Shown here: positions 43,263 through 52,802 of the stretch, in pieces
Layout of the letters: each line of letters begins with the position of its first letter
Position numbering within the stretch: the stretch's first letter is position 1
Source of the DNA: an uncultured Prevotella sp.
GTDB lineage: Bacteria; Bacteroidota; Bacteroidia; Bacteroidales; Bacteroidaceae
Direction of reading: 5' to 3'
Assembly: GCA_900770395.1 (NCBI GenBank)
Contig: CAAGKM010000030.1
Location: 423,210-487,209 of the forward strand
DNA length: 64,000 nucleotides
Translations under genes and position numbers: made by a program
Notes under the pieces: generated by a model
The model's database searches: none
What the model was told of the DNA's origin: nothing
Seen by the model: the letters and a program-made list of their open reading frames with translations, nothing else

Positions 43263-44519
43263 TTAACTCTTTACAATCTTGAACAACTTGTCGCTCGGGC
43301 GCACTTTCGCCGGCACTGGTATCGACACACGCTGTCCCTTGAGGGCTGTATCTACGGGCTTGAGGTCGTAGCGTATCTCGCTGCAGTCGAGATAAATCAC
43401 TCCTGTTGTGGGGCCTGTGATGAGCAGCTTGTCGCCCACGCTGAACTCCGACGCCTCCACCTGAAACTCCGCCACGCCGAGCTTCGAGAAGTACTTTATT
43501 CCCTTGGCGCAATACACCTTTCGCTCCGTGGCTGCCGAACCGTAGTTCTTGTTCCACTCGCCGAGAGTCTGTCCCTGATAGTAGCCGTCCCAGAAGCCAC
43601 GGTTGAACACTGTTGCGAGACGCTCGTCCCAGGCATCCTTTTTCTCTTCGGTGAAAGTGCCGTCGAGCACCGATTGGATAGCCTCCTTGTAGCATTTCAC
43701 CACGGTGTAGACGTACTCTGGTCCGCGTGCCCTGCCCTCAATCTTGAACACCCTCACTCCGCTCTTCATCATGCGGTCGATGAAGCGCACGGTCTTCAGA
43801 TCCTTGGGGCTCATTATGTATTTATTGTCTATCTCCAGCTCGTTGCCCGTCTCCATGTCGGTCACTCGGTATGAGCGGCGGCATATCTGCACGCACTCTC
43901 CACGGTTGGCTGAGCGGTTGGCGTTCTGCAGGCTGAGGTAGCACTTACCGCTGATTGCCATGCACAATGCGCCGTGGCAGAACATCTCTATGCGTATCTG
44001 CTCTCCCGACGGACCGCAGATGTGCTGCTCCTCTATCTGACGGTAGATGTCTGCCACCTGGTCGAGGTTCAGCTCACGCGCCAGCACCACCACGTCGGCA
44101 AACTGTGCGTAGAACCTCAGCGCCTCGATGTTGCTGATGTTGAGCTGCGTGGAGAGATGTACCTCCTGACCGATAGAGTTGCAGTAGGTCATCACCGCCA
44201 CGTCGCTGGCAATCACGGCAGATATTCCGGCAGCCTTTGCCGCATCCACAATCTCGTGCATCAGCGGTATGTCCTCGCCGTAGATTATGGTGTTCACAGT
44301 GAGGTAAGTCTTTATGCCCTCGGCGTTGCATGTCTCCGCTATCTCGCGCAGGTCGTCGATGGTGAATGTGTTTGCCGAATGTGCGCGCATGTTGAGCTTC
44401 TCAATGCCGAAGTACACGCTGCCGGCACCAGCCTGTATGGCGGCGGCAAGACTCTCGCGGGAGCCCACGGGCGCCATTATCTCGTATTCGTTTGTCATAT
44501 TGTCCTGTTGGCTCATCAT
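43263..44519 (-). CDS. Peptidase U32 family protein (PrtC-like)
   Basis: U32 signature region (…EMFCHGALCMAISGKCYLS…) and overall collagenase-like pattern. Confidence 0.85.
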   Translation of the reverse strand: MMSQQDNMTNEYEIMAPVGSRESLAAAIQAGAGSVYFGIEKLNMRAHSANTFTIDDLREIAETCNAEGIKTYLTVNTIIYGEDIPLMHEIVDAAKAAGISAVIASDVAVMTYCNSIGQEVHLSTQLNISNIEALRFYAQFADVVVLARELNLDQVADIYRQIEEQHICGPSGEQIRIEMFCHGALCMAISGKCYLSLQNANRSANRGECVQICRRSYRVTDMETGNELEIDNKYIMSPKDLKTVRFIDRMMKSGVRVFKIEGRARGPEYVYTVVKCYKEAIQSVLDGTFTEEKKDAWDERLATVFNRGFWDGYYQGQTLGEWNKNYGSAATERKVYCAKGIKYFSKLGVAEFQVEASEFSVGDKLLITGPTTGVIYLDCSEIRYDLKPVDTALKGQRVSIPVPAKVRPSDKLFKIVKS

Positions 44520-45922
44520 CTCATCAGTTCTGCTATACGTTTGCTTATCTCGTTGTTCTCCATCACTCCGCTGAAGCGCTCTGCACCGGCACCTACGGCA
44601 AACACTGGCACGAAGCCGCTGGTGTGGCCTCCTGTGGTCCAGCCCACCACAGCCTTGCGGTTGAGTATCCTGATGGCTGTGGCTGCCATGAGATTGTCAA
44701 CATAATATTCGCTCTTCACTCCCTTCGCCTTGCCCTGCATTGTCCTGTCGTAGGCATCCTTCATCTCAGCCTCGTCTTTCTCGTCCATCCTCACGCTGGT
44801 CCACAGTCCCGTATATTCAGCCACCATCTGCCTCATCACGTCAAAGGTGAAGGCGTCCCTGTTCTCCTCTAACTTTGCCAGCAGCTTTTTGGTGAGTGTG
44901 TTCTGCGAGCACTTCTGGTTTCCGAGCACATCAAGATGAAGGTCATAATTGCCGTCACGCCCGAGGGTCACTCCTCCGGTCTCGTGGTCGGCGGATACTA
45001 CAATCAGGGTCTCATCGGGGTGCTGTTTGTAGAAACGGTATGCCACTGCGATGGCATTGTCGAAGTCGACGGTCTCGTGGATGGCTGTCGCAGCGTCGTT
45101 GGAGTGGCAGGCATAGTCAATCTGTCCGCCCTCCACCATTAGGAAGAATCCCTTTTCTTTACCTTTATTATATAGGAAGTCAACGGCAGCCTCGGTAATC
45201 TGCGGCAGTTGCAGGTCGGTGGCGTTGCGGTCGAGGGCGCAGGGCAGCTGGGTGCGGAACAGTTCTTCCCTGTCGTCGGTCTGGGTGAGCAGCACCTTCT
45301 GCTGCTTCCTGCCCTTCTCGAGATACTCATCATAGCCCTTGAGCGTGGTGTAGCCTGCTTTTGTCAGCATGTCGGCGATGGCGGGCTGCCTGCCGTCCTT
45401 GCCCTTTGGCTGGCGGAACCATGCTCCGCCGAAGAAGTCGAAACCGGATGCGGCAAGCTGCTTGCCTATCTCATAGTACATGCCACGCTCAGGCACGTGG
45501 GCGTAGAACACTGCCGGAGTGGCGTGGTCGATGCTCACGCTTGTGGTCACTCCCACAGCCATGCCGCGCTGCTTTGCCAGCTCGGCGATGGTCACGATGG
45601 GGCTCGCCTTAGCAGAGTCCATGGCTATCGTTCCGTTTGTTGTCTTCTCGCCGGTGCTCAGCGCCGTTCCTCCCGCAGCGCTGTCGGTGGTGCCGTGACT
45701 CTTGGAATAAGTATAGGAGTAACCCGTCACGGGGAATTGTGTCATGCACAGCGGCACACGGCAATTACTGCCGTTCATCGCCGCTCTGTAACGCTCGGTA
45801 AGGTTGATTTGGTTCACCCCCATGCCGTCGCCAATCATAAGAAACACATACTTCGCCCTCTGTGCCGCCGACGCCATGGTCATGCACAGGCACAGAAATA
45901 AGATATAAATTCTTGTCATCAT
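44516..45922 (-). CDS. Alkaline phosphatase (PhoA family), secreted
   Basis: Signal peptide, IGDGMG, and the active-site DSAAG(G)TA region. Confidence 0.9.
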   Translation of the reverse strand: MMTRIYILFLCLCMTMASAAQRAKYVFLMIGDGMGVNQINLTERYRAAMNGSNCRVPLCMTQFPVTGYSYTYSKSHGTTDSAAGGTALSTGEKTTNGTIAMDSAKASPIVTIAELAKQRGMAVGVTTSVSIDHATPAVFYAHVPERGMYYEIGKQLAASGFDFFGGAWFRQPKGKDGRQPAIADMLTKAGYTTLKGYDEYLEKGRKQQKVLLTQTDDREELFRTQLPCALDRNATDLQLPQITEAAVDFLYNKGKEKGFFLMVEGGQIDYACHSNDAATAIHETVDFDNAIAVAYRFYKQHPDETLIVVSADHETGGVTLGRDGNYDLHLDVLGNQKCSQNTLTKKLLAKLEENRDAFTFDVMRQMVAEYTGLWTSVRMDEKDEAEMKDAYDRTMQGKAKGVKSEYYVDNLMAATAIRILNRKAVVGWTTGGHTSGFVPVFAVGAGAERFSGVMENNEISKRIAELMR

Positions 45923-45947: not shown

Positions 45948-45955
45948 CAAAATTA
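45948..45955 (-). promoter_or_regulatory. -7 box (TAATTTTG on minus strand) for alkaline phosphatase
   Basis: Plus-strand CAAAATTA, 26 bp upstream of the minus-strand start. Confidence 0.4.
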
Positions 45956-46051
45956 ACACTTTTTTTGCAGAAGGCAATGCCTGCCACTCCCTTTTTAATG
46001 TTTTTTATTGATTAATAATGGCGAAACCGCACGTTTGCCCGATATTTTTAT

Positions 46052-46059
46052 TAACTTTG
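46052..46059 (+). promoter_or_regulatory. -7 box TAACTTTG upstream of the HU-like gene
   Basis: TAnnTTTG, followed about 40 bp downstream by the triple palindrome array. Confidence 0.4.
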
Positions 46060-46097
46060 CACCCGAGGGAAGGAGACGGACTGCCTGGAGTGATTAC

Positions 46098-46164
46098 CGT
46101 ACCCTATATATAGGTGGCAATCGTACCCTATATATAGGTGACAGTCATACCCTATATATAGGTT
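46098..46164. repeat. Three tandem copies (24-bp period) of a 19-bp unit containing the perfect 12-bp palindrome CCTATATATAGG
   Basis: CGTACCCTATATATAGGTG at 46098-46116, 46122-46140 and 46146-46164 (the third with 1-2 changes); palindromes at 46103-14, 46127-38 and 46151-62. Confidence 0.6.
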
Positions 46165-46219
46165 ACAACGACACTCCACCCACATCAATTGCGATGACAT
46201 GACCTAAACGATAACAGAT

Positions 46220-46639
46220 ATGATAGAACTTGAGATTAAAAGCAAGCGGCTGGCGCAGGGAAAGCGTAAGGGTAATATAGTTTACTTCGCCATGCCGAAG
46301 ACACAGGTGCGCATGACCTACAAGGAACTTGTAGACCGCATAGTGCGCGAGACATCGCTCACGGCGGGCGACGTGAGCAACGCAATAATAAGCATAGCGA
46401 ACGTGGTGTGCGATGTGATTGAGCTGGGCGGAAGCGTAGACCTTGCTGACCTCGGGCTGATTAGGGCAACCGTAAACACTAAAATGATGGACTCGCCCGG
46501 GGAAGTGACGGTGAAAGATGCCCTGCTCACGCCCAAGATTTCGTATACGCCCAAAAAGCGCATGCGCGAGTCACTGAAAAAAATAGAGGTGAGAATCGTC
46601 CGTGATGAAGCCGCGGCTAAGCCAAGCCCTGCGCCTTGA
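46220..46639 (+). CDS. HU-like DNA-binding protein (Bacteroidetes-specific HU family)
   Basis: 139 aa; …MTYKELVDRIVRETSLTAGDVSNAIISIANVVCDVIELGGSVDLADLGLI… shows HU/IHF fold spacing and a Lys-rich C-terminal tail. Confidence 0.75.
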   Translation: MIELEIKSKRLAQGKRKGNIVYFAMPKTQVRMTYKELVDRIVRETSLTAGDVSNAIISIANVVCDVIELGGSVDLADLGLIRATVNTKMMDSPGEVTVKDALLTPKISYTPKKRMRESLKKIEVRIVRDEAAAKPSPAP

Positions 46640-47213
46640 GCTCCTCCACTGCCGTTTCGAGAGCTGCATACCAGTCCTCACCGAAGCGCCGCGTAAGCGG
46701 TCCCTTCAGGAACTTATATACAGGAAGGTCAAGCTCCTGCCCTTTCTTTCGGGCATCGGCGCATACAGCCCAGCGGTGATAGTGCAGAGCTATGTCGCCC
46801 GAGCGCAGCGTTTTCTCCCTTATGGGATAGAGCGCGCAGCTTATGGGCTTGCAGAACCTCGCCTTGCCGCTGCGGTAAGCCTTCTCAAGAGCACACAGGC
46901 AGCAGCCGTTCTCATAGCAGGTGAACACGCAGTCCTTGCCGCCCACGATGCTGGTCACAAGCTCGCCGTCGACATCGGTGTAAGCCACGCCCTGCCTGTC
47001 GACGACCGCCTGCGCCGAGGCGCTCAGACCGCTCCACACCACGTCGAGCGAATCCTCAATCGCACTTATCTCATCCAAGGTCACAGGGGCACCGGCATCG
47101 CCCTCTACACAGCAAATGCCCTTGCAGGCATCAAGGTCGCAGCAAAAGCGCTCGGTGATGATGTCGAGCGGTATCAGTACATTGTCTATTTGTATTATCG
47201 GCAGGTGTTGCAT
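46617..47213 (-). CDS. Cys-rich conserved hypothetical protein (DUF3109-like)
   Basis: 198 aa with multiple CxxC/CC motifs (CCDLDACKGICC, CYENGCCLC). Confidence 0.5.
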   Translation of the reverse strand: MQHLPIIQIDNVLIPLDIITERFCCDLDACKGICCVEGDAGAPVTLDEISAIEDSLDVVWSGLSASAQAVVDRQGVAYTDVDGELVTSIVGGKDCVFTCYENGCCLCALEKAYRSGKARFCKPISCALYPIREKTLRSGDIALHYHRWAVCADARKKGQELDLPVYKFLKGPLTRRFGEDWYAALETAVEELKAQGLA

Positions 47214-47398: not shown

Positions 47399-47920
47399 AT
47401 GTCAAACAGCATGCAGAAAGAACATCGGCTTATGGAGCGTATGGAACAGCTATACAAACAGTTTCATACGCGGCTTTATCTGTATGCGCTGACAATCCTC
47501 GACAATGAAGACGATGCCAAAGACACCGTGAGCGACGTGATGCAGCAAATATGGGAACAATGGCATGCCGACGGCACGGAGACTGGTATTCCGGGAGCAG
47601 CATTCCTTTACACCGCCGTGCGCAACCGCAGCTTGGACAGGCTGCGCCACAGCAAGGTGACGGGACGATATGCCGAGGCAATGCGTGCCACCGAAGCGTT
47701 TGACGATGACGGGCAGGCTGAGGAATACGAGACACGGGTGGAGCGAATCAGGCATGCTATAAGCCAGCTGCCCGAACCGGGACAGACGGTGCTGCGCCAC
47801 ACCTACTTCAAGAAACTCACCTACAAACAGACCGCTGAAATATTGGGAATGAGCGAAAACATGGTGCACAAGCACATGATACGCATGTTCAGGCTATTAA
47901 GGGAAATAATGGCAAGATAA
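47399..47920 (+). CDS. RNA polymerase ECF-type sigma-70 factor
   Basis: Sigma-70 region 2 (…FLYTAVRNRSLDRLRH) and region 4 HTH (…YKQTAEILGMSENMVHKHM). Confidence 0.9.
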   Translation: MSNSMQKEHRLMERMEQLYKQFHTRLYLYALTILDNEDDAKDTVSDVMQQIWEQWHADGTETGIPGAAFLYTAVRNRSLDRLRHSKVTGRYAEAMRATEAFDDDGQAEEYETRVERIRHAISQLPEPGQTVLRHTYFKKLTYKQTAEILGMSENMVHKHMIRMFRLLREIMAR

Positions 47921-48024
47921 CGGCACAGGCAACATGCCATGCACGTATAAACAAAGTTAAAAAAGATTATAGGTAGCGCACAAAAAGCGCTATTCGGACG
48001 TAATAAAGAAAAAATAAACGACTA

Positions 48025-49125
48025 ATGGAATCAACCAACCATACCACCAAGCCACAACTGCCATACGATGATGAGCAGCTTGCCTTTGAAATACGCAGAG
48101 CATTGCTCGATGAGACTGCCGCCCCCGATGCCGGCGAGGCATTTGCGGAATTCAAGCGCCGCAACAGCCACATGAGCCGCAGGCTCAGACTTGCCGTAAG
48201 CCTGACAGCAGCCATAGCGGCTGCATGCATCGCCACATTAATAATAATAAGGAGCACGACATCCGGCGCCCCCTCTGCCGCAACTTCAGCAGTAAAGGCA
48301 CTGGCAGCGGCGGGCACAATAGTATATGAGGCACAGCCTGCCACAGACAGCCGGATAACCATGAACACCGGCAACGGTGAGGAAATAAAAGTGGGCAGCA
48401 GCGAGGCACGCGAAGCAGGAATAGACGTAAACAGCGAAGGAGAGATAATAATCACAGACCATACGCCGGCAAGCGAAAGCCACGAAATTGAGACACTGAC
48501 CCTGACCATCCCGCAGGGGAAACTGGCAAAGCTTATGCTCGACGACGGCACCACCGTGTGGCTCAGCGCCTACAGCAGGCTGATATTTCCCCAGCATTTC
48601 GCCCCCGCCATGCCGCGCGAGGTAATACTCTACGGCGAGGCATACTTCAAGGTGGCACACGATGAGGCACGCCCGTTCACGGTAAAGGCAGGAAGCATCA
48701 GCACACACGTATTGGGCACGCAATTCACCATACGCAACTTTGACGGCGAGCAGCCACAGGTGACACTGATAGAGGGCAAGGTGGAGGTAAGTGCCGGCAG
48801 CGACCGCAACATCACCCTCAGTCCCGACCAGACAGCATGGCTTGACGGCAACGGCACACTCAACAGGGAAGCCGCCGACATGGACGTGGCTACAAGCTGG
48901 ATGAGCGGGAACTTCTATTACGACGGTCAGACGCTGAAACACATAATGACAGACATCGGGCGATGGTACAACATGAGTGTAGTGTTTGAGAACAGTGCCC
49001 TCATTGGCACACAGCTGCATTTCAATGCCTGCAGAAACTGGAGCATAAAGCAGGTACTGGAGCAGCTGCAGCTAATTTGCACGGCGAAATTCGTCATAAA
49101 AGACAATGTTTTAATTGTAAAGTGA
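48025..49125 (+). CDS. FecR-family anti-sigma factor
   Basis: Single TM after a cytoplasmic N-domain; a FecR domain (…TVWLSAYSRLIFP…) with a C-terminal …LIGTQLHFNA… partner-switch region. Confidence 0.85.
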   Translation: MESTNHTTKPQLPYDDEQLAFEIRRALLDETAAPDAGEAFAEFKRRNSHMSRRLRLAVSLTAAIAAACIATLIIIRSTTSGAPSAATSAVKALAAAGTIVYEAQPATDSRITMNTGNGEEIKVGSSEAREAGIDVNSEGEIIITDHTPASESHEIETLTLTIPQGKLAKLMLDDGTTVWLSAYSRLIFPQHFAPAMPREVILYGEAYFKVAHDEARPFTVKAGSISTHVLGTQFTIRNFDGEQPQVTLIEGKVEVSAGSDRNITLSPDQTAWLDGNGTLNREAADMDVATSWMSGNFYYDGQTLKHIMTDIGRWYNMSVVFENSALIGTQLHFNACRNWSIKQVLEQLQLICTAKFVIKDNVLIVK

Positions 49126-49204
49126 AAGATAAAACAACGTTTTTCTTTTATTCTGTATTGATTTTAACTTTTATTAAAGGCACAATGTAGACACCGAGCA
49201 CGTT

Positions 49205-49247
49205 ATCACTAAGTAAACGTTGGAAAAAATTAATAAAACTTAGTGAT
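49205..49247. promoter_or_regulatory. Perfect 10-bp inverted repeat ending 3 nt before the susC-like start codon
   Basis: ATCACTAAGT (49205-49214) and ACTTAGTGAT (49238-49247) with a 23-nt A-rich spacer. Confidence 0.4.
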
Positions 49248-49250
49248 ATT

Positions 49251-52200
49251 ATGCAAATATTCAACACACGAAAGCATTTTACCGTGACCGCCGGCAAACG
49301 CTTAGGCGCCTTAGCCGTAATGCTGATTTTGTCATTGGCTGTAATAGCGCAGTCAAAGGGACACATCACTGTGGCGTTCAACAACGAGAAAGCCACGACA
49401 GCACTGCGAAAGGTGGAAAAGCTGTCAGGCAGAAAAATCCAGTACAATTATGACGATGTGAACTTCAAGGTTACACTGTCGCTGAAAAACAAAACGCCCG
49501 AGGATGTAATCAGGGCAATAGTGAAAGGACACCGCCTGAGAGTGCAGTCGAACGGCGAGTTTATTGTGATAATAAGGACCGACAACATCCCGACAGAGAC
49601 AACCGACGGCAAAACCGTGCAAGGCATCGTGATAGACATGCACGGCGAGCCTGTCATTGGAGCGGTGGTACGTGACCGAACACACAAGCAGAACACCGTG
49701 ACAGACGTTGAGGGAAAATTCGCACTGGAGGCACAGTCTGACCGCATATCGCTCAACGCGTCATACCTCGGCATGAAGGCTGCCACATGGAACGGCAACC
49801 GCGGCGACTACGCCGTGATTGTGATGGAAGACGCCACCAACACTCTTGAGGACGTGGTGGTGACGGGATACCAGCAGCTTGACAGGCGTAACCTCACATC
49901 GTCGGTGACATCAAAGGACATGGACGAGCTGAAGATTGCCGGAGTGAGCGACCTGTCGAAAATGCTTGAGGGACAGATTCCCGACCTGATAAGCACAGCT
50001 GCCAGCGGCGAGATCAATGCCACCAACCGCATAAGGATTAGAGGTACAAGTACACTTATCGGCAACCGTGAGCCGCTGTGGGTTCTCGACGGGATAATCC
50101 TGACCGACCCCATCAGCCTTACGAGCGACGTGCTCAACGACCCCGACTACGTGAACCGCATAGGTAACGCCATAGCAGGAATAAACCCTCAGGACATAAA
50201 GCGTATAGACGTGCTGAAGGATGCTGCCGCAACGGCACTCTACGGCACGCGTGCCGCCAACGGCGTGATTGTAATCACCACCAAGAGCGGCCGCGAGGGA
50301 AAGCCCATCATCTCATACGACACACAGCTCACACTGCGCAAGCGCCCTTACTACACCGACGGCAAGATAAACCTTATGAACTCGGCTGAGCGCATACAGT
50401 TTTCAAAATATCTTGCCGACCAGCACTACAAATATCCCAGCAGCATGGCATGGGTGGGATATGAATATGCCCTGTCGCAGTACTACGCAGGCAAGCTCAC
50501 CGAACAGGAGTTCAAGCAGGAGGTGAGAAACATGGAGCTCCGCAACACCGACTGGTTTGATGTGCTGTGCCACAACTCGTTCTCCCACGACCATTCGGTA
50601 AGCATATCAGGAGGCTCGGAGCGTGTGAGGTATTACACCTCTGTAGGATACACCGACCAGGACGATGTCATCGACAACACCACAAACCGTCGCTACACCA
50701 CCATGGCAAAGATTGACATGACGCTGAGCAGCAAGTTTCAGCTGCAGGTAAACCTCAACGGATATCTCAACAACCGCGAATATACCGCAGGAGAAGTGAA
50801 CCCAATCGACTATGCCTACAACACAAGCCGCACGATAGCCGCCTACAATCCCGACGGCAGCCTACACTACTACCAGCGGCCTGCAACCACCAGCTACAGC
50901 TACGGCTACAACATCTTGGGCGAGATGGAAAACAGCGGCACCACCCAGCAGACCAGTTCGGTGACCGCTACCGCCAACCTGCGCTACCAGCCCACGAACA
51001 ACCTGTTCTTCAACGCCATCTTCTCGGCAAACGTGAACAACGGAAGCATCGAGACCTATTACGGAGAAAACACATTCCACTCAAAACTGCTGCGAAGGGC
51101 TGGTTCCGACGGAACAGTATCCAGCGACAGCTACATGCCATACGGCGGTGAATACACAAGCCAAAAAAACAAAAACGTGGGATGGACGGCACGACTGCAG
51201 GGAAACTACAACAAATACATAGGATGGAAACACAACATCAACGTGGCGCTGGGATTCGAGGCTTCGTCGGCACACGTCACCGGCGACAGCTACACACAGC
51301 GCGGATACTACAAGGACCGCGGACGCTCGTTTGCAGTTAATATTCCCGAATCGTTCACAAACTACTGGTCGTGGATGAGATCCAATGTGCCGAAAATCAC
51401 CGACTCAAAGACCAATATGGTGAGTGCATACGCCACATTGTCCTATTCCTACGGAGGGCTGTTCACCGTGAATGCCAACGGCCGCTTCGACGGCAGCAAC
51501 CAGTTTGGCAGCCGCAGCAACGAGAAACTGCTGCCCATCTGGAGCGTATCGGGAAATGCCAACCTGCGCGACATCACGAAGATAAAGGCAAAATGGCTCG
51601 ACGACCTGCGCCTGAAGGCATCCTACGGCGAGCAGGGCAACATGCTCGACAACCAGACATCGGAGCTCATAATAAAAAAGGGCGGAATGAACTCGTTCTA
51701 TAACGAAATGGAATCTACCGTGGCATATTTTGCCAACCCTGACCTGAAATGGGAAAAGACACGCTCAATAAACACGGGCTTGGAGGCAAGCCTGTTTGAC
51801 AGCCGCCTGCAGCTTGAGGTGGAATACTACAACAAGCACACCACCGATGCCTTTATGAGCAAAACCATCAGCGACGTAAACGGATATACTTCATACATCA
51901 TCAACTCGGGAACAATCACCAACAGCGGCTTCAACTTCACGCTGACGGCAACCCCGATAAAACTGAAAGACTTCTACTGGATATTCTCAGGAAACCTGTC
52001 GAAGATATATAATAAGGTGAAAACCGCTCCGGGTGCCGAGACGTATCAGCGAAATGACTTTCTCACAGGAAACGCCGTTATAGAGGGACAGCCCGTGGGA
52101 ACATTCTATTCGTTCAAGTTCTTGGGACTGAGCCCCACAGACGGCGGACCGCTCATTGACGACATGGAGGAGCGTCAGGAGGAAATCAACAACGTGAGCA

Positions 52201-52802
52201 ACTATGAGCTCTACACCCGGGTGCTGACTCCATCAGGCCGCCGCGAGCCGGACATCACGGGCAGCATCAACAACACATTCACATACAAGCAATGGCGGCT
52301 CAGCTCCTCGCTTGTCTACAACCTGGGAGCAAAGACACGGTTGTTCCGCCTGTTCGACGGCTTCGCAACAACGGGCTCGGCATTTATGGCAGACCACAAC
52401 ATCAACCGCGACTTTCTCAACCGCTGGCAAAAGCCCGGTGACGAGCTGAATACAAACATACCGGCGGTGATTGGCAATGGCAACAAAGACTACTGGTACT
52501 ATAGCAGCCACTGGAACTCGCGTCTTGCCGACAATGCCTGGGAAATGTATGATTACAGCACGGCGAGAGTGGTAAGCGCCAATTATCTGAAACTGTCCAA
52601 CCTGTCGCTCACCTACGAGTTCAGCCGCAAACAGCTCGACCGCATGAAGCTTGACCGTCTGGCAATCATCCTGAGCGGATATAACCTGCACACATGGTGT
52701 GACAAATCACTGCGCGGACAAACCCCTACCCAAGGCGGTTTCACAGAGATACAGCTCTCCGACACCCCAAGCTACACTCTTGGCGTATCAATTAATTTCT
52801 AA
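49251..52802 (+). CDS. SusC/RagA-family TonB-dependent outer-membrane transporter with N-terminal STN signalling and carboxypeptidase-regulatory-like domains
   Basis: 1183 aa. The N-terminal extension is typical of anti-sigma-coupled SusC proteins; it has a TonB box region and a C-terminal …SYTLGVSINF terminal beta-strand. Confidence 0.9.
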   Translation: MQIFNTRKHFTVTAGKRLGALAVMLILSLAVIAQSKGHITVAFNNEKATTALRKVEKLSGRKIQYNYDDVNFKVTLSLKNKTPEDVIRAIVKGHRLRVQSNGEFIVIIRTDNIPTETTDGKTVQGIVIDMHGEPVIGAVVRDRTHKQNTVTDVEGKFALEAQSDRISLNASYLGMKAATWNGNRGDYAVIVMEDATNTLEDVVVTGYQQLDRRNLTSSVTSKDMDELKIAGVSDLSKMLEGQIPDLISTAASGEINATNRIRIRGTSTLIGNREPLWVLDGIILTDPISLTSDVLNDPDYVNRIGNAIAGINPQDIKRIDVLKDAAATALYGTRAANGVIVITTKSGREGKPIISYDTQLTLRKRPYYTDGKINLMNSAERIQFSKYLADQHYKYPSSMAWVGYEYALSQYYAGKLTEQEFKQEVRNMELRNTDWFDVLCHNSFSHDHSVSISGGSERVRYYTSVGYTDQDDVIDNTTNRRYTTMAKIDMTLSSKFQLQVNLNGYLNNREYTAGEVNPIDYAYNTSRTIAAYNPDGSLHYYQRPATTSYSYGYNILGEMENSGTTQQTSSVTATANLRYQPTNNLFFNAIFSANVNNGSIETYYGENTFHSKLLRRAGSDGTVSSDSYMPYGGEYTSQKNKNVGWTARLQGNYNKYIGWKHNINVALGFEASSAHVTGDSYTQRGYYKDRGRSFAVNIPESFTNYWSWMRSNVPKITDSKTNMVSAYATLSYSYGGLFTVNANGRFDGSNQFGSRSNEKLLPIWSVSGNANLRDITKIKAKWLDDLRLKASYGEQGNMLDNQTSELIIKKGGMNSFYNEMESTVAYFANPDLKWEKTRSINTGLEASLFDSRLQLEVEYYNKHTTDAFMSKTISDVNGYTSYIINSGTITNSGFNFTLTATPIKLKDFYWIFSGNLSKIYNKVKTAPGAETYQRNDFLTGNAVIEGQPVGTFYSFKFLGLSPTDGGPLIDDMEERQEEINNVSNYELYTRVLTPSGRREPDITGSINNTFTYKQWRLSSSLVYNLGAKTRLFRLFDGFATTGSAFMADHNINRDFLNRWQKPGDELNTNIPAVIGNGNKDYWYYSSHWNSRLADNAWEMYDYSTARVVSANYLKLSNLSLTYEFSRKQLDRMKLDRLAIILSGYNLHTWCDKSLRGQTPTQGGFTEIQLSDTPSYTLGVSINF

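Follow-up and report, generated by a model that had tools for sequence, protein, structure and literature searches.

The 64,000-nucleotide stretch of an uncultured Prevotella sp. that we analyzed (hereafter the window; contig CAAGKM010000030.1, a scaffold of 661 kb) carries three tandem copies of a perfect 12-bp palindrome, CCTATATATAGG, between a predicted promoter and a gene for a DNA-binding protein of the HU-HIG family. Here we describe this array, the arrays found upstream of related genes, and the way in which array sequence follows one loop of the protein encoded downstream. The features of the locus, in window coordinates, are these:

46034..46037, plus strand: TTTG, candidate -33 element of the HU-HIG promoter, 14 nt 5' of the -7 box
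46052..46059, plus strand: TAACTTTG, a match to the Bacteroidetes -7 box TAnnTTTG, invariant across syntenic strains
46087..46092, no strand assigned: GGAGTG, one arm of a 6-bp inverted repeat around the array (other arm CACTCC, 46172-46177)
46098..46169, no strand assigned: tandem array of three 24-bp units (12-bp palindrome plus 12-bp spacer), found by Tandem Repeats Finder and by repeat search
46103..46114, no strand assigned: palindrome 1, CCTATATATAGG, proposed dimer binding site; exact match, 0 of 12 positions varying among nine strains
46127..46138, no strand assigned: palindrome 2, CCTATATATAGG, proposed dimer binding site; exact match, invariant among the nine strains
46151..46162, no strand assigned: palindrome 3, CCTATATATAGG, proposed dimer binding site; exact match, invariant among the nine strains
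46220..46639, plus strand: HU-HIG gene (139 aa, PF18291 profile match), encoding the proposed cognate binding protein
46247..46267, plus strand: codons 10-16 (RLAQGKR), the hairpin loop between two predicted strands, proposed as specificity determinant from its association with the array

The array, its promoter and its gene

The three 24-bp units read CGTACCCTATATATAGGTGGCAAT, CGTACCCTATATATAGGTGACAGT and CATACCCTATATATAGGTTACAAC, each containing the palindrome. Tandem Repeats Finder reports a period of 24 with 3.0 copies and 89% matches, and its score of 114 is the highest in the window; an independent repeat search recovered the same three units (family D1). Both the sequence and the repeat call thus bear out the triple palindrome at exact 24-bp spacing described in the first-pass annotation. 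That annotation had also stated that the motif does not recur in the window, which holds at up to one mismatch: the three exact sites (46103, 46127 and 46151) are the only ones, and no further site within the 64 kb lies within one mismatch. With up to two mismatches allowed, none of 100 dinucleotide-preserving shuffles equaled the observed count.

The array begins 38 nt 3' of the -7 box and ends about 50 nt before the ATG, the last palindrome ending 57 nt before it, in keeping with the roughly 40 and 55 bp given earlier. TTTG at 46034-46037 is unchanged in all nine syntenic strains, including the divergent strain L007 described below; we presume its -33 role from the Bacteroidetes promoter consensus. 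Transcription is predicted to start near 46066; a sigma-70 promoter and terminator scan of the window was uninformative for Bacteroidetes. The alkaline phosphatase gene (44516-45922, minus strand) is divergent from the HU-HIG gene and has its own minus-strand -7 box, TAATTTTG, at 45948-45955, about 140 nt from the array and beyond the HU-HIG promoter. The array therefore lies outside the control region of that gene. An overlap with the divergent phosphatase region had been suggested earlier, and we abandon it on these grounds; the array is 3' of the HU-HIG promoter, and most other loci have no such neighbor. The GGAGTG/CACTCC bracket is paired in the predicted fold of the leader RNA and differs in L007 (CGUCGC with GUGACG); it is a weak feature that may have arisen by chance.

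The product of the downstream gene matches the PF18291 profile (E = 2.4e-14; 53.9 bits against a cutoff of 26.2), which places it in the HU-HIG family. Its AlphaFold2 model (mean predicted local distance difference test score, pLDDT, of 84) has strands at residues 2-10 and 20-26, forming an extra N-terminal beta-hairpin ahead of the two HU helices. The best match among solved structures is 4FMR (BVU_2165, itself an HU-HIG protein), with chains of HU and IHF next in rank, so that the predicted hairpin strands and the structural match agree with the profile. In the basic hairpin loop Gly14 and Gly18 are invariant, and Arg16 and Lys17 nearly so.

Nine contigs of the same species, with HU-HIG proteins 97-99% identical, share the gene order and keep all three array units. 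Among these strains none of the 36 palindrome positions varies, whereas five of the remaining 36 positions of the array do (Fisher p = 0.054). A tenth contig, L007, is a natural experiment in which array and hairpin loop have changed together amid near-identical flanks. Its flanking DNA, promoter included, is about 98-100% identical to the window, its HU-HIG protein is 89% identical, and the replaced segment runs from 46085 to about 46275 in window coordinates. The array there is CCTATTATTGG - 12 nt - CCAATAATAGG - 12 nt - CCAATAATAGG, which makes three units of period 23 built on an odd-centered 11-mer, the first unit being the reverse complement of the second and third.

The protein differences between the window and L007 cluster in residues 12-20 (LAQGKRKGNI against LGYGDRKGKT) and 82-127. 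In both changed segments the proportion of synonymous differences (pS) is about 0.4 and that of nonsynonymous differences (pN) about 0.09, compared with 0.09-0.14 and about 0.01 in the flanking genes. The divergence is mosaic: pS reaches about 0.4 at 46085-46275 (array and codons 1-35) and again at 46426-46575 (codons 69-120), with 0.09-0.14 in the segment between. With pS and pN both raised, the changed segments look like old or imported alleles rather than the product of a burst of mutation; the mosaic suggests either old balanced alleles or imported tracts.

Arrays throughout the HU-HIG family

We scanned one genome per species, which yielded 80 loci with relatives 40-63% identical, some genomes contributing several and none belonging to the window's own species, from Prevotella, Bacteroides, Phocaeicola, Parabacteroides, Alloprevotella, Hoylesella and Porphyromonas. 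We define the array class as tandem repeats of period 23/24 with at least two copies that end about 30-180 nt before the HU-HIG ATG. Tandem Repeats Finder called an upstream array in 62 of 78 loci, with a period of 23/24 or 46/48 in 60 of these; 60 of the 78 family loci, and the window with its 3.0 copies at period 24, fall within the class. By eye, tandem palindrome units are visible in the 220 nt 5' of the start codon at almost every family locus, and most loci that gave no call have two to four more diverged units. Copy number ranges from 1.9 to 6.5 (median 3.7), and the arrays, always on the 5' side of the gene, end 33-176 nt (median 63) before the ATG. They are present for relatives down to 36-45% identity.

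The first-pass annotation had named absence of the array from relatives as the outcome that would count against it. What we found is the opposite: the architecture is kept at most relatives, and the core sequence is not conserved. Examples of cores or units from individual loci are ACCCCACGCGTGGGGT, ACCCCATGCATGGGGT, ACCCATACAAGGGT, CCAACCGTTGG and GTATCAGATAC, and further GTCACAGTGAC, GTCATAATGAC, GTGTTAAACAC, ACTCCTTATAGGAGT and ACTTTAAGTTAAAGT; the array sequences of different loci are otherwise unrelated. Even paralogs within a genome differ, carrying different array classes in 11 of the 14 genomes that contributed at least two loci.

The association with HU-HIG genes is exclusive in the DNA that we fetched. 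Of its 431 kb, the 32 kb made up of the 400 nt 5' of HU-HIG genes held 55 arrays of period 23/24 and five of period 46/48; the remaining 400 kb or so held only four period-23/24 repeats, none of which resembles the HU-HIG arrays. Detectable arrays are missing at a few loci. At L043, where two HU-HIG genes stand in tandem (2-445 and 506-913, about 60 nt apart), Tandem Repeats Finder reported no repeat in the 450 nt 5' of the second gene, and L034 and L041 likewise have no detectable array. A phage origin was considered and rejected: among 2.9 million contigs of a viral collection a single one has a relative, a distant one at 36% identity, with two 23-nt units.

Exact -7 boxes lie 5' of the array at nine family loci and between array and ATG at none. 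Conserved across 74 distinct loci (46196-46219 in the window) are TTAAAA, spanning -17 to -11, and TAAC[CA], around -24 to -21; both probably belong to an A-rich region of translation initiation, not to a promoter.

The units themselves obey a rule of parity. Odd-centered palindromes go with period 23 in 20 of 21 cases and even-centered ones with period 24 in 16 of 16, so that the part of the unit outside the center is a constant 22 nt; the window (even-centered 12-mer, period 24) and L007 (odd-centered 11-mer, period 23) both follow it. Within arrays, copies vary at 0-12% of positions within 6-7 nt of the dyad center, the center included, and mostly at 20-34% in the spacers, which leaves a conserved dyad core of about 14 bp flanked by spacers that drift. 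In 21 distinct even-centered cores the dyad cells are complementary in 77% of cases compared with 59% in shuffles (0 of 500 as high), and double changes reach even the second-innermost pair (T-A 10, C-G 8, G-C 1); a separate, unbiased test also found the dyad covariation. Pyrimidine-purine steps occur at +/-1 and +/-3 of the center in 55-90% of even-centered cores (for example TATATATA, CACGCGTG and CATGCATG), the pattern of a deformable core of alternating pyrimidines and purines.

These properties bear on whether the array works as RNA. The predicted promoter places the window's array in the 5' leader, where the palindromes could pair and steer mRNA stability or translation, perhaps with the protein binding its own message; we think this quite unlikely. 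We folded 62 arrays of period 23/24 (or 46/48) from L010-L089, L007 and the window. Leaders fold more stably than their shuffles do (z = -2.4 in the window and -4.5 in L007), and z is below -2 in 54 of the 62, a result that any set of palindromes must give. The inverted first unit of L007 preserves pairing as well, and full palindromy permits RNA duplexes between units. However, in 45 of the 62 arrays it is the antisense strand that forms the more stable fold, by a mean difference of 5.2 kcal/mol that we attribute to a C- and A-rich sense strand, and at the frequent arm mismatches (GGGT to GAGT or CAGT, by eye) the sense strand would carry C-A or C-C instead of G-U. Excess sense structure is missing at L076 (6.5 copies, z = +3.5), L033 and L077, and L064 and L071 keep just an 8-bp core. 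Bases that would form the hairpin loops are conserved like the arms, and covariation reaches pairs that enclose only 0-2 nt. A hairpin array would need neither the 23/24 period nor the parity rule, and hairpins of single units, with four A-U-rich pairs, would be very weak. Rfam holds no matching family: against Rfam 15 the window region gave only chance-level matches (E >= 1.9), and 20 related loci gave nothing but one tRNA.

The same comparisons make it very unlikely that we are dealing with a functionless minisatellite, or with selfish repeat DNA, generated by slippage and hitch-hiking with a fast-evolving gene, or else a coding repeat. Whole units do come and go, since the alleles of another conserved locus differ by one 23-nt unit (three in L091-93, four in L094-96), and a transposable element of P. 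gingivalis spreads a 23-nt repeat (PMC4596501). Yet the architecture survives where the sequence can no longer be recognized, the core evolves at another rate than the spacer, and CCTATATATAGG is unique to its array in the window. As for coding, 24 nt make eight codons, and an open reading frame (ORF) with a TTG start at 46008-46202 spans the array, which it would translate as RTLYIGGN, RTLYIGDS and HTLYIGYN. We reject this reading: the ORF starts 5' of the predicted promoter, and about half of the family arrays have period 23, which cannot encode a peptide repeat.

Covariation of the hairpin loop with the core

As the array sequence changes, so does one loop of the protein. In all 12 loci at which the loop reads x-L-N-[VI]-G, with asparagine at position 12, the core is CACG(C/A)GTG (CACGNGTG); the only other locus with Asn12 has TACGCGTA (Fisher p = 3.5e-13, relatedness ignored). 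These Asn12 loci are dispersed across the protein tree and their leaders are unrelated. Other pairings are just as regular:

Loop QPVGE (QPVGK at one locus) with CATGCATG: 10 of 10 loci
Loop QPIG[KT] with CC[AT]TA[CT]A[AT]GG: 11 of 11
Loop L[TS]IGN with GTATCAGATAC: 8 of 8
Loop [IV]TIG (STLG at one locus) with GTCACAGTGAC: 5 of 5
Loop PLGD with GTCATAATGAC: 2 of 2
Loop KKQT[VI]GSK with GTGTTAAACAC: 2 of 2

Array similarity was correlated with hairpin residues 8-16 in a partial Mantel test that controlled for the remainder of the protein (r = 0.31, p <= 0.0005), and the same test found no association with the array for the beta-arms or the middle of the protein. The single positions best associated with array type are 12, 25, 15 and 11. 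Two Asn12-loop loci fetched once the rule had been formulated, from a Hoylesella pleuritidis-like genome and from Prevotella intermedia AP014597, have three 24-bp units with ACCCCACGAGTGGGGT or ACCCCACTCGTGGGGT, as predicted, although they are not fully independent because their proteins resemble those of L066 and L067.

Architecture, exclusive association with HU-HIG genes, conservation of core over spacer, the parity rule and the covariation of protein with DNA are observed; from them we infer binding, its cooperative nature, the direction of regulation and any additional targets. We consider it rather likely that the array serves the adjacent HU-HIG dimer as its cognate DNA site and has an autoregulatory role. 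One homodimer would occupy each two-fold symmetric core of about 12-14 bp, with the basic loop of the N-terminal beta-hairpin (G-x-R-K-G after variable residues) reading the core bases and the alternating pyrimidine-purine center supplying the deformability that HU-type bending requires. The fixed 23/24-bp register would bring neighboring dimers into contact and fold the 70-bp array into one nucleoprotein complex. As the array of the window sits between the predicted promoter and the start codon, its occupancy would block transcription, and the result may be cooperative negative autoregulation. In outline this is the operator array for a dimer, controlled by the HU-like protein itself, that the first-pass annotation had proposed. 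The idea has gained the architecture at most relatives, the dyad core, the loop covariation and the joint change in L007; its binding, cooperative and autoregulatory parts stay at the strength of a proposal.

The change of array sequence with one protein loop also means that HU-HIG proteins, supposedly non-specific, probably read specific DNA. Here our results point away from the published view. The only published analysis of the family, in the part drawn on here, judged HU-HIG proteins unlikely to be sequence-specific transcription factors (PMC5499826); the clade of Burroughs et al. 2017 is the same family as ours, and the arrays and the loop-core covariation point the opposite way. That part of the paper reports lineage expansion, rapid divergence and no conserved operon partner or gene linkage, with 22 copies in one Bacteroides genome, and holds no mention of upstream repeats (PMC5499826). 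Expansion, fast divergence and the lack of a conserved operon partner are likewise seen in our loci, and the clade comprises some 1,725 clusters at 50% identity.

Besides the published judgment, several observations weigh against specific binding or against autoregulation. The beta-arms of the clade bear acidic residues (KMMDSPGEVTV), in a part that is modeled at lower confidence. A period of 23/24 bp does not correspond to an integral number of helical turns. Only some 60-130 nt separate the array from the hairpin codons, so recombination could pass them on as one block and yield covariation without any functional link; blocks do move, as L042 and L061 show with identical C-terminal halves (the segment compared) and a different hairpin and array. 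A functional tie between loop and core is thus argued, not proven, on the grounds that the pairing holds both in the short term, between the window and L007, and after leaders and spacers have been erased. At many loci an upstream gene's stop codon is followed at once by the array, and blocking of the HU-HIG gene's own promoter may therefore not be how arrays act in general. Finally, pure self-regulation leaves unexplained why there are so many such pairs per genome.

In another reading the HU-HIG protein binds the array for an architectural purpose: to insulate or block at the point where the upstream gene ends, to provide a site of nucleation or tethering, or to serve as a decoy that titrates the protein. 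HU-family proteins bend DNA. At about 34 of 80 loci a same-strand gene for a surface protein (fimbrillin-like, collagen-repeat or GLUG) ends just 5' of the array, and in L091-L096 the array begins directly after the stop codon. Where it adjoins such a gene, the array could just as well work as a roadblock or insulator. Against this, the window has no upstream same-strand gene and a conserved promoter just 5' of its array, and the arrays always precede the HU-HIG gene by much the same distance, a pattern typical of self-control. Non-regulatory roles have been proposed for the family, in the part of the published analysis drawn on here (PMC5499826). We rate a purely architectural array as improbable.

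Binding by another factor whose gene lies elsewhere, for instance a global regulator or recombinase, has nothing specific in its favor and seems most improbable. The cores differ between paralogs of one genome and between strains, so each array would need a partner of its own. HU-HIG is the only variable gene consistently linked to the array; downstream neighbors are unrelated, and no conserved recombinase or regulator lies nearby.

If each array is instead the site of its own HU-HIG protein, the joint diversification of array and loop implies that the paralogs of one genome form separate protein-site pairs that do not cross-react. It is tempting to extend this proposal, tentatively, to the family as a whole. 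HU-HIG proteins and arrays may form a large family of self-contained recognition pairs, several per genome, in which a few hairpin residues on the HU scaffold set specificity for a deformable palindrome of about 14 bp in a simple, readable code. Diversification might be driven by avoidance of cross-talk or by conflict with mobile DNA, and the 23-nt BrickBuilt repeat of P. gingivalis could be one such array, captured and spread by a transposable element.

HU-HIG is among the largest unexplained gene expansions in the Bacteroidales, a dominant bacterial order of the human gut and mouth. If each member has a private, co-evolving array, each protein gains a concrete and testable ligand, and dozens of natural protein-site pairs become available for learning how the HU fold attains specificity. 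The same pairs would offer small, non-cross-reacting repressors and operators for engineering Bacteroides and Prevotella, and would suggest a possible origin for the P. gingivalis minisatellite. The only published analysis found no partner to assign to HU-HIG proteins and questioned whether they recognize sequence (PMC5499826).

Parallels in other systems and neighboring genes

In its working, the arrangement resembles phage operator arrays or plasmid iterons, set on an HU scaffold in the chromosome. Lambda-type operators (OR1-OR2-OR3, bound by cI and Cro) likewise place several dyad sites beside the gene of the protein that binds them, are occupied by cooperative, autoregulatory dimers, and have diversified together with their repressors into specificities that do not cross-react. 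The centers of lambda operators are 23 and 24 bp apart. They differ in serving a helix-turn-helix repressor of a phage, whereas the HU-HIG arrays serve an HU fold, are chromosomal and have up to 6.5 sites; lambda operators also overlap two divergent promoters, whereas the array of the window is 3' of its predicted promoter.

Plasmid iterons and centromere repeats (Rep iterons, ParR-parC and Omega heptads) are tandem repeats of about two turns beside the gene of their binding protein, with units in either orientation, and they vary between related elements and in copy number. Iterons are mostly asymmetric direct repeats, in contrast to the palindromic units described here. We found neither a Rep gene nor a plasmid context, the neighbors being chromosomal housekeeping genes with no replication or partition genes among them, and we therefore do not class the array as an iteron.

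Among HU relatives, IHF, Hbb of Borrelia and TF1 of phage SPO1 are established as sequence-specific. They share the fold and set a precedent for an HU protein that reads sequence partly through the deformability of DNA. They differ in binding single asymmetric sites, without a private tandem array, and HU-HIG proteins have the extra N-terminal hairpin and less basic arms. In the literature on HU-HIG, on iterons and on Bacteroides HU paralogs we found no description of such arrays, and the family-wide rule appears to be previously undescribed.

BrickBuilt is a 23-nt minisatellite within a P. gingivalis transposable element, with the consensus AGAYCATARTATCCTCTCRTRTG, and one copy, BrickBuilt_14, adjoins a gene for a PF00216 DNA-binding protein (PMC4596501). 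It comes from the same bacterial order, is a tandem 23-nt unit and changes by whole units (PMC4596501); by our own reading its consensus forms a 12-nt palindrome, TCTCATATGAGA, across unit junctions. It differs in that a single sequence recurs at 19 sites, framed by leader and tail segments and bearing terminal inverted repeats, whereas HU-HIG arrays are single-locus and locus-specific. The array of the window is not a BrickBuilt element, as neither the terminal inverted repeat GAGACCTTTGCA nor the unit AGAYCATARTATCCTCTCRTRTG has a match in the window at up to one mismatch. The inverted repeat is also absent from the fetched loci and the unit from all 217 loci examined, and a search seeded with a Porphyromonas relative gave no P. 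gingivalis-labeled protein among the named matches listed. A shared origin of BrickBuilt and HU-HIG arrays is a lead.

Two other repeat classes were compared. A CRISPR array was rejected, as the 12-nt spacers are similar to one another (GTGGCAATCGTA and GTGACAGTCATA) and there are just three units. For repeats of the repetitive extragenic palindromic or bacterial interspersed mosaic type (REP/BIME), CCTATATATAGG is confined to the array within the 64-kb window, and metagenome matches, among those listed, are chance singles only. A metagenome scan for TACCCTATATATAGGT returned at least 120 unrelated single matches from marine, soil and gut samples, a chance level for a 16-mer, which is too short for that collection.

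The surface-protein genes that we located 5' of arrays in other genomes include the following:

L014, 865-2409: Mfa_like_1 gene
L026, 779-2350: Mfa_like_1 gene
L028, 130-1653: Mfa_like_1 gene
L038, 256-1803: Mfa_like_1 gene
L080, 816-2327: Mfa_like_1 gene
L023, 985-2367: collagen-repeat gene
L050, 839-2344: collagen-repeat gene
L033, 606-2366: GLUG gene

One of these upstream genes also has a sub-threshold Lcl_C match, and in L026 the downstream gene, by eye, is fimbrillin-like as well.

Oral Prevotella have a second, unrelated 22-nt repeat near HU-HIG genes, AAATATGACGTCTAAATCTGAC, in 2.5-2.7 copies:

L045, about 284-224 nt before the ATG: AAATATGACGTCTAAATCTGAC repeat
L068, about 351-293 nt before the ATG: AAATATGACGTCTAAATCTGAC repeat
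L052, 5186-5241: AAATATGACGTCTAAATCTGAC repeat

In the oral Prevotella loci L052, L053, L058 and L063, a gene of 597-610 aa begins about 40-80 nt 3' of the HU-HIG gene and carries the YD/RHS-type motifs YYGARYYEPRLSLWVSTDP; recognition of these motifs alone suggests a polymorphic toxin. In Prevotella intermedia (L221-L223, 1798-2850) a gene of the thiol-activated cytolysin family (PF01289) lies 3' of the HU-HIG gene.

The neighbors in the window are genes for alkaline phosphatase, peptidase U32, PAP2, DUF3109, an extracytoplasmic function (ECF) sigma factor with FecR, and a TonB-dependent receptor. These neighbors and the nearest homologs point to a Prevotella-like bacterium of the gut. A look-up of the DUF3109 protein returned the same allele only. 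Its gene (46617-47213, minus strand) is convergent with the HU-HIG gene and shares with it a 23-nt 3' overlap (46617-46639) that is kept in all syntenic strains. At 47399-52802 the gene for the ECF sigma factor stands in a row with those for a FecR-type anti-sigma factor and for a TonB-dependent receptor of 1183 aa, the usual Bacteroidetes layout for trans-envelope signaling, unrelated to the arrays.

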